A DNA stretch of 27,960 nt from a bacterium (GTDB taxonomy: Bacteria > Patescibacteriota > Patescibacteriia > Patescibacteriales > JAKAJF01), in contig JAKAJF010000001.1 in assembly GCA_021813875.1 (NCBI GenBank), positions 1 to 27,960 of the forward strand, read 5' to 3'. The translations under genes and the position numbers were made by a program. Numbering within the stretch: the first letter of the stretch is position 1; each line of letters opens with the position of its first letter. Positions 25,263 through 27,562 of the stretch are shown here, in pieces. Under the pieces are notes generated by a model. The model worked only from the letters and a program-made list of their open reading frames with translations, did no database searches and was not told the DNA's origin.

Positions 25263-25393
25263 GTTATAAACATAACAAAAAGTTAATAATTTGTAAATTT
25301 CTTAAATAAATTTTACTAATATTAGCTACTGAGATAAATTAAAATTATAATCGAACTTTTGGAATAAAATTAAAAGGAAAGGAGGCGATAAAG

Positions 25394-25576
25394 ATGCCTG
25401 GAAGCAACGTCGGATTTAATTCTGGCTGGGATGGAGATGATTCTTATCCGTCCGGCGAGACGAGCGTCGAAGAGCCGAGGCTTTTCGACGTCATCGAGGC
25501 ACCGGTCAGGGCTGCGGCTAATTTAGTCAGCCATATTCTGCCGGCCGACGGGGATGATGGCCCCAGGGGCGGGTAA
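25394..25576 (+). CDS. 60-aa acidic small protein
   Basis: Strong SD (GAAAGGAGG), TATAAT at 25346-25351 and its own terminator; DGDD occurs twice; ends in RGG. Confidence 0.65.
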   Translation: MPGSNVGFNSGWDGDDSYPSGETSVEEPRLFDVIEAPVRAAANLVSHILPADGDDGPRGG

Positions 25577-25580
25577 ACGA

Positions 25581-25610
25581 AAGGACAGTTTAAAAAACTG
25601 TCCTTCTTTT
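25581..25610. terminator. Hairpin terminator (also the first hairpin of the tRNA-fragment array)
   Basis: Perfect 11-bp aaggacagttt-aaa-aaactgtcctt, followed by ctttt. Confidence 0.75.
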
Positions 25611-25615
25611 GTTCT

Positions 25616-25777
25616 TGCGGAGAGGCAGGGATTTCCGCGCTCGCTCGGCGGCCGAATTCCGCCTCGTTCACTTGTCCAGGGTCAGCGCGAACGTGCCCCC
25701 AGCACGTCCGCGATCGCTCGATAATTCGCCTCGGCTTCCGCCTCGGCTCATATCTCACTTCTGCTCGTTCGAATCCC
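25616..25777 (-). repeat. tRNA-Ser 3'-fragment unit 1 with structured insert
   Basis: Minus strand: GGGATTCGAACGAGCAGAAGTGAGA-[114 nt]-GCGGAAATCCCTGCCTCTCCGCA. The end equals T-stem 3' strand, acceptor 3' strand, G discriminator and CA, as in tRNA-Ser. No tRNA 5' half is present. Confidence 0.8.
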
Positions 25778-25789
25778 AGCACTCATTAT

Positions 25790-25829
25790 GCAAAATAAAA
25801 GCAGGCGTGAGGCCTGCTTTTATTTTTGA
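25790..25829. terminator. 40-nt hairpin spacer of the array
   Basis: Perfect 15-bp stem aaaataaaagcaggc/gcctgcttttatttt. Confidence 0.75.
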
Positions 25830-26002
25830 TGCGGAGAGGCAGGGATTTCCGCTTCACTTTCCCCCGCATCGAGTGCGGGGTCAGTTCGTTACCCTGTGCA
25901 GCGCCAAGCCCTGCGCCAGCTCGGGCTTGAGCGACGCTCGCCTGTGTTTCTCGCCGGCAGAAACGGCCCGAAACTTGTCTCGCTTCTGCCCGTTCGAATC
26001 CC
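25830..26002 (-). repeat. tRNA-Ser 3'-fragment unit 2 with structured insert
   Basis: Identical 23-nt tgcggagaggcagggatttccgc and a 25-nt tctcRcttctgcYcgttcgaatccc (2 mismatches to unit 1), with a different 125-nt interior. Confidence 0.8.
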
Positions 26003-26014
26003 TTTCCACTTTTC

Positions 26015-26054
26015 GCAAAATAAAATTCCCCCAAGAATGGGGGAATTTTATTCT
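26015..26054. terminator. 40-nt hairpin spacer of the array
   Basis: Perfect 15-bp stem aataaaattccccca/tgggggaattttatt; same gcaaaataaaa flank and length as the previous hairpin but a different GC core. Confidence 0.75.
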
Positions 26055-26082
26055 TGCGGAGAGTGGTCAACGGTATCCGAAC
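26055..26082 (-). other. att-like junction (third tRNA-Ser 3'-end core, 9 nt)
   Basis: The tgcggagag core recurs, then the sequence diverges and base composition turns AT-rich. Confidence 0.6.
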
Positions 26083-26585
26083 TGCTTAGTAGTCTTTATT
26101 GCTGTAACATTTTCTTTCAAGGCCAGTTCCGCGATAGAATCTACATGGCCATAACCACAAATCAGAAGAGTTGTCTTATCTCCCTTTTCTTTAATTTTAT
26201 TCAGCCAAAATTTCTCTCTTTTTATATCTGATTCTTTAGCGATTTTATTAATTTCGATTTCTTGTTCGGTTGTTAATGGAAAAGAAAAGCCTAAATTTCT
26301 TGCAATATCTTCTCGTTGTTGAAGCCCTAATTTATTTCTCTCATCAAATCCAGGGTCGCAAAGCAAATATTCTATTCTAAAAGTGGAAATAATTTTTCTT
26401 GCATGAGTATTATTTATCTCCCAGTGGCACAAAGCATCTTCACTAATTTCTTCGGCAACTAATTGAATTTTCTTCTCTTGAATGATTTTTTTTAGATAGC
26501 TTAAATACTTATCAACTTCAACCAGATCATTATCTTTATGTGGGAATTGAACTTTAAAATGAGCAACCCCTAAAATATATATCAT
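26067..26585 (-). CDS. Hypothetical protein, TraB/PrgY/GumN (Tiki/ChaN/EreA) superfamily-like
   Basis: ILGVAH, LVAEE, RE..W...I and LLICGYGHV correspond to the H, E, R and H core motifs. Confidence 0.6.
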   Translation of the reverse strand: MIYILGVAHFKVQFPHKDNDLVEVDKYLSYLKKIIQEKKIQLVAEEISEDALCHWEINNTHARKIISTFRIEYLLCDPGFDERNKLGLQQREDIARNLGFSFPLTTEQEIEINKIAKESDIKREKFWLNKIKEKGDKTTLLICGYGHVDSIAELALKENVTAIKTTKQFGYR

Positions 26586-27152
26586 TTATTTCTTATTTTG
26601 TGTTGCCCATCTATCAACTATCTTTTTCATCCATTCTAATAGCCCTACGTGGAGTCTGTTCAATATAGGCAAAAGTTCTCCTATTTGATTAGAAAATTCT
26701 TCACTACCGCACACCTCTTGTTCGGCCACAAATGCAACATATGCATCGAGTGGATCTATCTTAATTTTATAAAAATCCTCAAGTGAAGATAGAAATGTAT
26801 CTTCATCCTTAAGACGATCTCGTTCATAAAGATCATTAGTTAGTGCAAAAAAATTTTTTGCTCTTTCAGGCAAGAATGACAGGCTTTTAAGCAAAATATT
26901 TTCGCCAAAAAGCTGGCCTATTATTTGGCCCTCAGGAGTGAAACTAAGATAAAAAAGATGAGCTCCAATAAGACAATGTATAAGCTCTGACCTTGCTTCA
27001 TCGTTCTTCAAAATATCCGACCATCCTGTTTTAACCTCTGCCTGTAATTCACCCACTAGCTCCGCAGAACGAATGGCTGCCCATATAGGAAATTCACTAA
27101 GAAAAATATCCTCGTCCTTGTCGGTTGGTTTTGTTTTTGAAAACCACGTCAT
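26586..27152 (-). CDS. Hypothetical protein
   Basis: 188-aa AT-rich ORF whose stop directly abuts the next ATG. Confidence 0.7.
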   Translation of the reverse strand: MTWFSKTKPTDKDEDIFLSEFPIWAAIRSAELVGELQAEVKTGWSDILKNDEARSELIHCLIGAHLFYLSFTPEGQIIGQLFGENILLKSLSFLPERAKNFFALTNDLYERDRLKDEDTFLSSLEDFYKIKIDPLDAYVAFVAEQEVCGSEEFSNQIGELLPILNRLHVGLLEWMKKIVDRWATQNKK

Positions 27153-27220
27153 AAGTGTATTTTAAATTATAATTATAACGTATAATAAAATTAGCAAAAA
27201 ATCAAGATAAGTTACCCACT

Positions 27221-27249
27221 TTGACGCCCCTCCGCACTTTTGCTACACT
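27221..27249 (+). promoter_or_regulatory. Sigma70-type promoter
   Basis: TTGACG-N17-TACACT with an extended TGn. Confidence 0.7.
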
Positions 27250-27255
27250 AATAAT

Positions 27256-27360
27256 GTTTCCGTGAATAAAATATTACAAGCAGACGGAATCAGATCAACG
27301 AAGCTCGCGTCTAGGGATATTAACTATCGCGCCCTTAATTCAAGGGGGCGTTTTGTGTTT
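27256..27360 (+). ncRNA. Candidate sRNA or attenuator leader of about 105 nt
   Basis: ORF-free; 5' stem ttccgt/acggaa; ends in a cgcgccctt/aagggggcg hairpin plus ttttgtgtttt. Confidence 0.45.
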
Positions 27361-27500
27361 TATGGCCCTGTTGCCTTTTAAAAATTTTCAATTTGGGGGT
27401 AAATAATTGCGATTCTTTGGATTCCGATTGCGTAGAAAATACAACACTGCAAGAGAAATTCTATATGCTCGAACTGCACAAAGCACCTTTAAATACAAAA

Positions 27501-27562
27501 CAAAACGAGGCTTTGGCCTCGCTTTGTCGCGAACTGCGGTGGCGATGTCCGGAAGTTTGAAC
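27501..27562 (-). other. Fourth hairpin plus tRNA-end-like att junction
   Basis: Hairpin caaaacgaggc/gcctcgctttg, then tgcggtggcg. Minus strand G-TTCAAAC-N15-CCGCA has the same spacing as the junction at 26055. Confidence 0.45.

Follow-up and report, generated by a model that had tools for sequence, protein, structure and literature searches.

Two tandem GC-rich units, with AT-rich genes on either side, are found in the genome of a member of the Patescibacteria, and the question they raise is what kind of element they represent. The window, i.e. the whole stretch of 27,960 nucleotides that was analysed, corresponds to contig C35 in a genome of 775 kb that is 77% complete (G000); the rest of this contig is unremarkable chromosomal DNA that encodes PheT, UvrA and an AddA-like helicase. 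The tandem lies within 25581-26064 with a period of 214/225 bp; units U1 (25616-25777) and U2 (25830-26002) are two diverged members of one family, belonging to two subtypes, which have a common architecture and an alignment identity of only ~60-75%. The sequencing runs matching this stretch are four DNA runs of one mine-drainage study, with no RNA-seq run among them. The best explanation, to which a probability of about 0.55 is assigned, is that U1 and U2 are copies of a non-autonomous, protein-less Patescibacteria cassette that is armed with guides and targets the T-loop of tRNA genes.

Along the plus strand, each unit shows in succession TGCGGAGAGGCAGGGATT, TCCGC, a GC-rich stretch of ~130 bases and TCTCRCTTCTGCYCGTTCGAATCCC, and it is completed by a spacer with a bidirectional terminator hairpin. 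All the motifs listed by an initial annotation of this DNA are present at their places: gttc...cagcgc, gcga(t)cgctcg and tctcRcttctgc followed by cgttcgaatccc are common to the two, and the hairpin is acgtgc/gcacgt in U1 (25691-25696/25702-25707) and aagccc/gggctt in U2 (25906-25911/25923-25928), which additionally contains gtttct/agaaac and ccccgca/tgcgggg pairs. A CRISPR array is ruled out by the period of 214/225 nt, by a "repeat" that consists of a tRNA 3' end plus the element ends, and by "spacers" that are homologous folded cores.

In the tRNA-sense direction, i.e. along the minus strand, the array begins with a nine-nucleotide remnant of a proximal 3'-end copy (26056-26064, CTCTCCGCA on the minus strand), where the third copy of TGCGGAGAG is found at 26056; the remnant abuts the stop codon of the minus-strand ORF 26067-26585. 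A spacer with a bidirectional terminator hairpin (26003-26055, hairpin 26019-26052) lies between this remnant and U2, and leads to the 5' antisense arm of this unit (25992-26002, minus strand, GGGATTCGAAC). The folded core of U2 (25848-25991, minus strand; 135 bits to model R2) includes helix P2 (25986-25991 with 25896-25901), P3 (25906-25928), the P5 hairpin (25864-25881) and a P4/P6 arm that takes in gtttct/agaaac. The U2 3' arm (25830-25847, minus strand) is a copy of a tRNA-Ser-type 3' end, the same as in U1, and 3' of it on the tRNA strand is found the inter-unit spacer (25778-25829) with another bidirectional terminator hairpin (25792-25826).

U1 has the same 5' antisense arm, GGGATTCGAAC, at 25767-25777 (minus strand), complementary to tRNA positions 53-63, that is to the T-loop and the 3' strand of the T-stem. 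Its folded core (25634-25766, minus strand; 117.6 bits to R2) starts, in minus-strand order, with a linker and P2, in which 25761-25766 pair with 25680-25685 but for two mismatches; an arm bearing CGAG/CGAG tandem G.A loops comes next, and then the hairpins P3 (25691-25707) and P5, up to a ...GCGGA junction. The U1 3' arm (25616-25633), which reads AATCCCTGCCTCTCCGCA on the minus strand, is a direct copy of a tRNA-Ser-type 3' end, from A58 to G73 plus CA; its first 6-7 nt pair with the 5' arm forming helix P1, and an identical arm is present at a locus of another genome (L123). A distal bidirectional terminator-like hairpin (25581-25605) follows U1 on the tRNA-sense strand. The same hairpin also terminates a small plus-strand ORF (25394-25576).

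No tRNA could be found in the window by ARAGORN and the tRNA-Ser itself is absent from the contig; thus, the local array is deduced from its arms alone, and the read-through tRNA transcript invoked by the initial annotation is not demonstrable here. Comparison of the window with metagenome contigs, which are short only, revealed loose ends at 25607, 25756 and 27535/6, alternative flanks at 25607 and 27535/6, extra depth over U1 deriving from other copies, and no joints.

Searches with profile and covariance models (R1, R2) revealed six copies in G000; elsewhere in this genome they are located behind tRNA-Gly(GCC) on contig C4, tRNA-Gly(TCC) on C79 and tRNA-Trp at the C85/C7 contig break, and a distant relative is found behind tRNA-Ser(GGA). 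Model R1 identified copies in 14 of 61 related ~1-Mb genomes, and an exact core 21-mer is present in 41 loci of public Patescibacteria MAGs, labelled as Moranbacteria, Magasanikbacteria, Kerfeldbacteria, Falkowbacteria, Komeilibacteria, Doudnabacteria and "Patescibacteria group", where model R2 confirms 51 elements. This subtype occurs in only 3/150 genomes of an even sample of the phylum. One 800-kb genome (G152) carries 10 near-identical copies at six or more loci, including an element with exactly the arm of the window, AATCCCTGCCTCTCCGCCA, and again without an adjacent tRNA. In total, 66 further copies were gathered from Patescibacteria MAGs, with no longer, ORF-bearing relative among them; a degenerate 21-mer matched viral contigs 19 times by chance, and model R2 confirmed no copy among these matches. 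A family of ~170-base, protein-less folded elements located behind tRNA genes is widespread in the tiny-genome Patescibacteria/CPR; it is apparently undescribed until now, and full-text literature searching found no description of such elements.

The relation to tRNA genes is precise. In 42 of the 66 elements a tRNA ends no more than 130 nt upstream on the same strand, and nine types are represented (Glu 13, Gly 11, Gln 6, Ser 4, Lys 2, Leu 2, Arg 2, Trp 1, Tyr 1). The 5' arm is a perfect complement of nucleotides 53-61 of its own tRNA in 42/42 copies, with a run from G53 of 9-19 nt; complementarity then falls off (38/42 at nt 62, 29/42 at nt 63, 25/42 at nt 64 and ~45% at nt 65-69), and in five copies it still extends to nt 69-71. 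The mean contiguous match is 11.3 nt with the own tRNA and 6.7 nt with other tRNAs. The five arm bases complementary to 53-57 have no partner within the element, yet they track rare T-loops, namely TCCG three times and TCCA once. Thus, the arm complementary to the tRNA T-loop that had been proposed from the sequence of the window does exist, and it is found in every tRNA-linked copy. The 3' arm starts exactly at A58 in all the 38 cases in which it was found (38/42) and extends to the discriminator in 30/42; if CCA is encoded in the gene, the copy is followed by it too. On the element side, the sequence up to the junction is ...GRGGCGRA or ...GCGAG.

This matching also changes the view of the end motifs, which the initial annotation considered as fixed: they vary with the neighbouring tRNA. 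Indeed, what looks like a plus-strand "5' motif" in the G000 copies reads as the 3' end of the neighbouring tRNA in reverse complement, and the T-loop heptamer matches the T-loop of the own tRNA down to single-base variants (TTCGATT versus TCCGATT); the T-loop-like heptamer seen on the plus strand is the complement of the 5' antisense arm of the element. A long quasi-palindrome extends from G53 to the antisense arm and takes in the trailer and the terminator; its self-complement identity is 0.75 versus 0.51 for shuffled sequences, and young copies form one near-perfect hairpin of 84-87 nt from it. Compact variants, which lack P5, start 10-12 nt past the tRNA and have no upstream terminator, so that their co-transcription with the tRNA is obligatory.

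A multi-helix structure maintained by selection on the fold is common to the family. In a plain MAFFT alignment of 26 members (A7), not fitted to the model and with 43 pairs projected by hand, 84.9% of cells are paired, versus 34-44% after sliding the partners; the covariation score was reached by 0/500 shuffles, and both-side changes are seen in 29/43 pairs. In 50 further sequences (A8), which were aligned to the model and hence lean towards it, 92.6% of cells are paired and 34/43 pairs have both-side changes. These values bear out the original suggestion of a covarying structured family, as opposed to random spacers. The best helix is the long-range P2, Watson-Crick in 150/156 cells, with variants such as GGGCAG/CTGCCC, GGTTGG/CCAACC, GGTCAG/CTGACC, CGGTAG/CTACCG and AGACAG/CTGTCT. 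In the consensus structure the 5' antisense arm pairs with the first part of the 3' sense arm as P1, and this helix closes a junction that encloses the P2 domain, consisting of a rod with up to three GA/GA loops and hairpin P3, and the GGAA-capped hairpin P5. The Rfam 15 covariance models, which include group I/II introns, ribozymes, HEARO/omega RNAs and tRNA-like RNAs, gave 0 matches in the window at gathering thresholds on both strands, and at E<=10 only terminator look-alikes; at 15 other loci only tRNA and tmRNA were matched, and no ribozyme or intron family, so the comparison with known RNA and intron families that had been recommended assigns neither the window nor these loci to any of them. 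A peptide-coding function was also considered and rejected, the ORFs over the elements being artefacts of nucleotide conservation.

The fold had originally been described on the plus strand; however, the folded strand is the minus strand of the window, i.e. the tRNA-sense strand. The latter is more stable in 26/26 members, by a mean of 6.7 kcal/mol, and non-Watson-Crick helix cells favour G.U over A.C (46:28 and 52:27) and G.A over T.C. Tandem G.A pairs, with GA opposite GA in 26/26 and 24/26 members and flanked by C-G, are formed on the tRNA strand only. Accordingly, CGAG occurs 4.33 times per element versus 0.32 for CTCG, and the recurrent "CTCG" noticed on the plus strand corresponds on the other strand to the self-pairing CGAG/CGAG with its tandem G.A pairs; the C-GGAA-G loop (CGGAAG) is found in 36/66 elements and its complement CTTCCG in 0/66. 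Stability, motif counts and G.U/G.A bias thus rule out a plus-strand fold.

The elements are polymorphic for presence and absence, and they have been re-targeted between tRNA species. The tmRNA-tRNALeu-tRNAGly locus runs straight into infC in three genomes of the same family, with no insert, and carries two stacked inserts in G000; tandem arrays are common, in the window as in other genomes. On the core tree, tRNA identity needs 34 changes (minimum 9; shuffled mean 38), and near-identical cores are found behind different tRNAs of one genome, as for Glu/Gly in G014, Gly/Glu in a Magasanikbacteria MAG and U1/Trp in G000. Two G005 copies have the proximal terminator in common, and the G014 copies only arm and core; for the arrays of G152, recombination between cores is a sufficient explanation. 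Distal copies retain CCA or the ancestral acceptor sequence where the live gene differs, and thus record the 3' end as it was when the insertion took place. Excised forms, circle junctions and precise close-range empty/occupied pairs were not seen; in particular, the comparison of G051 with G014 recovered no close-range empty site, since the flank has diverged.

Insertion at this position is reminiscent of larger elements. In the classification published by Williams in 2002, islands and prophages with tyrosine integrases reportedly integrate in the T-loop sublocation of tRNA and tmRNA genes. The cassettes resemble them in the crossover in the T-loop, the regenerated tRNA 3' end, the displaced 3' end that becomes a distal direct repeat, and tandem accretion; they differ in their size of 170-220 bp, in the absence of an integrase or any other gene, in the conserved folded core and in the extra antisense copy of nt 53-64. 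Thus, the direct repeats typical of this class are found, and the integrase is not. The units could be inert scars, attL/attR duplications left as decayed remnants of integrase islands or phages at a T-loop attB, similar to CIMEs. Such an origin would agree with the tRNA 3' direct repeats flanking the inserts and with tandem stacking beside gene-carrying cassettes, as in the window (26055-27562) and at L026 in another genome, where a gene-carrying cassette likewise lies between tRNA-Ser and the folded element. However, a common fold is kept by compensatory changes across candidate phyla, the antisense arm is precisely matched, 10 near-identical copies occupy six or more loci, and no element-specific integrase is present in the genomes tested. 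Covariation excludes inert att scars as such, and a decayed-island origin is regarded as highly improbable.

A linked protein is also missing. The element contains no ORF, and clustering of neighbouring ORFs revealed no recurrent neighbouring protein, the clusters being spurious frames over the element or housekeeping synteny such as TsaD. TnpB was found in 1/61 genomes and does not track the element; IS110 (PF01548) in 4/61, 0 of these element-bearing; the Y1 transposase (Y1_Tnp) in 33/61, being missing from 7/14 element-bearing genomes and from G152; RT (RVT_1) in 27/61, missing from 9/14 element-bearing genomes and G152 and never adjacent; Nop (PF01798) in 0/61. This distribution rules out TnpB, IS110, Y1 transposase, RT and Nop/Tas as partners. 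G000, G005, G014, G036, G057 and G152 have one Phage_integrase match each; in G005, G014, G036, G057 and G152 a single Xer-like tyrosine recombinase is encoded, and near-complete genomes with 2-10 copies contain one such gene and none of the other enzymes sought. Several known classes are rejected on the same grounds: an IS200/IS605-derived PATE or a TnpB omega/reRNA by the Y1/TnpB distribution; an IS110/IS1111 bridge RNA by the absence of the DEDD transposase from element-bearing genomes; a retron, DGR or other RT-associated ncRNA, since RT is missing from most element-bearing genomes and never adjacent; and a TIGR-Tas array by the lack of Nop in the 61 genomes and by units of 160-225 nt versus repeats of 36 nt.

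Nevertheless, a resemblance to guide-bearing systems exists. As in the ends of IS608/IS200-605 with their DNA guide tetranucleotides, in IS110 bridge RNA and in the dual-spacer guides of TIGR-Tas, short target-complementary segments, one per target strand, set the site; conversely, the cognate proteins of these systems do not track the cassette, its arms overlap by 7 nt and pair together, and no likeness in sequence or structure is detected by Rfam. In CPR, the dual guides of TIGR-Tas, a different system, pair with opposite strands (PMC12045711).

The 12-nt 5' arm could also be an internal guide, as the IGS of group I introns (P1/P10), in an intron- or ribozyme-like or RNA-guided element. It would pair with five nucleotides before the junction (G53-G57) and seven after it (A58-64), and the core would catalyse, or guide a host enzyme to, a strand transfer at 57/58 on tRNA DNA or RNA, leading to self-insertion or to exchange of the tRNA 3' end. 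Contiguous complementarity across the junction in 42/42 copies, a 53-57 complement that follows rare T-loops, a conserved core with multiway junction and conserved joiners, the lack of a protein partner even in the genome with 10 copies, and the CPR precedent of opposite-strand dual guides are all consistent with this proposal. However, no Rfam ribozyme or intron model is similar, a junction G.U and an omega-G are absent, and the antisense arm may equally well be the outer part of a long DNA palindrome with the terminator at its centre; the proposal is judged unlikely. A group I intron proper is rejected by the lack of an Rfam match, the G57-C pair at the junction, a last element nucleotide that is mostly A and a ~130-nt core, too small for this class. 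Likewise, the upstream gene is intact without splicing, which rules out a tRNA intron needed for function.

The elements may instead be genes for a functional structured ncRNA tied to its tRNA and transcribed in tRNA sense, either directly, if no terminator lies in between, or by read-through of the terminator. In such an RNA P1 would mimic the 3' strand of the acceptor/T-arm, or the arms would pair with the tRNA, with a possible role in tRNA processing, protection/decoy or regulation, and the genes would have spread by duplication with tRNA loci. Strong purifying selection on structure across candidate phyla, GGAA tetraloops, CGAG/CGAG tandem G.A pairs, conserved joiners, a purine-rich strand, terminators 3' of the 3' arm, compact variants necessarily co-transcribed with the tRNA and the lack of a mobility enzyme all point in this direction. 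However, the distribution is patchy, with 14/61 genomes in the order and, for this subtype, 3/150 across the phylum; copies range from 1 to 10, stack in tandem and have variable tRNA partners within one core clade, and a parasite fits these features better than a housekeeping RNA. Moreover, orthologous sites in sister genomes are empty, and a strong terminator shields most copies from the tRNA promoter, with no promoter-like site before U1 or U2 on either strand in a scan of 25300-26300. An ncRNA gene of this type is a tentative but serious alternative.

As for the guide-armed cassette, its layout on the tRNA-sense strand is tRNA, trailer, terminator hairpin, antisense arm (complementary to nt 53-61/64, and up to nt 71 in young copies), ~130-nt core, sense copy from A58 and next terminator. 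The cassette would insert between nucleotides 57 and 58, giving the gene a replacement 3' end, and the displaced original 3' end would become the distal arm; repeated events would stack cassettes in tandem, the gene-carrying cassette of the window being probably the nearer to the missing tRNA-Ser. We infer that the cassette moves as a unit and that its fold mediates the insertion, through an acting enzyme, if any. The tRNA-sense fold, as ssDNA or RNA, may be the recognised or reactive structure, and the two arms may act as guides aligning the element with both sides of 57/58, by analogy with CTX attP(+)/attC or with the IS608 guides. Two insertion models can be proposed: the element may carry the proximal 3' end together with the terminator, or fold-back and template switching at the terminator may have produced the arms as copies of the target. 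The cassette reading does not account for the resetting of both arms to a new tRNA when the core moves. In addition, GNRA-type loops and conserved unpaired joiners are characteristic of functional RNAs, and it is not obvious why a purely DNA-level parasite should have them.

The closest parallels are found among folded recombination sites. According to Val and co-workers in 2005 and to the integron literature, CTX attP(+), an XerCD-dependent IMEX, and the integron attC reportedly act as folded single-strand recombination sites. The cassettes have in common with them the conservation of structure over sequence, the use of one specific strand, a hairpin of inverted segments that mimics the duplex target, tandem stacking and the lack of an own recombinase. 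A one-strand exchange of the CTX attP(+) type would leave, in order, target-left plus element copy, a loop, an inverted full copy, the body, and element-left plus target-right, exactly the arrangement seen here. Differently from these sites, the target is the tRNA T-loop and not dif or attI, to which the T-loop bears no likeness in the case of dif; IntI is absent, a single Xer-like recombinase is present, the arms are re-specified for each tRNA, and neither attC nor attP(+) has anything comparable to the large conserved core with its tandem G.A pairs and GNRA loops. The elements show a strand-specific fold and stacking of cassettes, and their genomes no second tyrosine recombinase. MITEs, REP/BIME, Correia and RPE elements are likewise small, gene-less, multi-copy and highly structured, with inverted terminal segments; conversely, the "terminal repeats" of the cassettes are copies of the target that vary from copy to copy, targeting is strictly to one phosphodiester of tRNA genes, and internal helices covary. 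A MITE, with its constant terminal inverted repeats, short target-site duplication and related autonomous IS, is rejected: the arms differ according to the tRNA, 16-19 nt of tRNA are duplicated from a fixed nucleotide onwards, and no parent IS was found.

A more far-reaching possibility is a new class of mobile element devoid of its own protein, in which a folded RNA or ssDNA would recognise, with two exchangeable guide arms, either side of the 57/58 phosphodiester in the T-loop and insert there by its own catalysis or by universal host machinery alone, such as the single Xer recombinase or template switching during replication at the palindrome of the terminator; we consider this rather unlikely. 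Close to this reading would be an RNA specific for the tRNA, acting in the exchange or repair of its 3' end. If mobile, the cassettes would be among the smallest site-specific elements known, with targeting written in two short, replaceable arms, a principle that is useful elsewhere, as in bridge RNAs, TIGR and omega RNAs. If they are RNAs, they would represent a large new structured RNA class tied to CPR tRNA biology. The cassettes thrive in the most reduced bacterial genomes, nearly devoid of recombination machinery; they explain recurrent assembly breaks and GC-rich islands beside tRNA genes in CPR MAGs, and leave fossil copies of older tRNA 3' ends.

Besides the folded element, the protein-less cassette of about 170 bases found downstream of Patescibacteria tRNA genes, a second, protein-coding kind of insertion is present at tRNA ends. 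In the genome to which the window belongs (G000), small GIY-YIG (UPF0213-like) ORFs lie directly after tRNA-Tyr (locus L041 on contig C7, approximately 2500-2878) and after tRNA-Ala(TGC) (contig C57, approximately 1790-2162), starting in both cases immediately 3' of the tRNA end; downstream of the ORF, a GC hairpin precedes a second copy, 26-30 nt long, of the T-arm and 3' end of the tRNA. A further type of small insert, AT-richer and distinct from the folded element, was observed at loci L011/L005, L031 and L036 and at tRNA-Ala(GGC) on C57; at L011/L005 (contig C4 of G000) it forms the second insert behind tRNA-Gly(GCC). Its terminus is a GGGGC-TTCC-GCCCC hairpin fused to a 22-nt tRNA copy, which begins at G53/T54, whereas the copy in the folded element begins at A58.

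Position 55 of tRNA is almost universally occupied by U or pseudouridine; in several tRNAs of these genomes (L025, L041, L023 and others) the T-loop reads TCCGATT or TCCAATT, with C at this position.

In G152, an 800-kb genome with ten copies of the folded element, two tRNA-Gly genes (loci L121 and L120) carry arrays of the element. The distal copy at tRNA-Gly(GCC) retains TTACCCGC, and the live tRNA carries the compensatory pair GCGGCTA/TAGCCGC; the tandem pair at tRNA-Gly(TCC) contains a GCC-type middle arm that bears the terminator of the GCC locus. These features indicate exchange between the arrays. In G000, the end of contig C85 (12115-12252) overlaps the start of C7 (1-185) inside the element copy behind tRNA-Trp; the assembly break between these contigs fell within the repeat.

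BLAST detected an element core with 80% identity in genome G051 (contig C4, 38089-38248), which was negative in the filtered covariance-model search; therefore, the prevalence obtained with covariance models (14 of 61 related genomes and 3 of 150 across the phylum) represents a lower bound.

The 3' end of the window contains a low-GC ORF cassette of 1.5 kb (26055-27562), analogous to the one that is placed between tRNA-Ser and the folded element at L026. Its two minus-strand ORFs (26067-26585 and 26586-27152) gave no Pfam match, and the cassette is delimited by pseudo tRNA 3' ends that terminate in CCGCA; precisely at 27535/6, contigs assembled from other metagenome samples part from the window. 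The final 3.7 kb of the contig (24300-27960) has a G+C content of about 35-40%, compared with about 50-60% elsewhere on the contig, and consists of hypothetical genes and the cassette array; owing to these features, the region looks like an accretion island at tRNA-Ser beyond the contig end.
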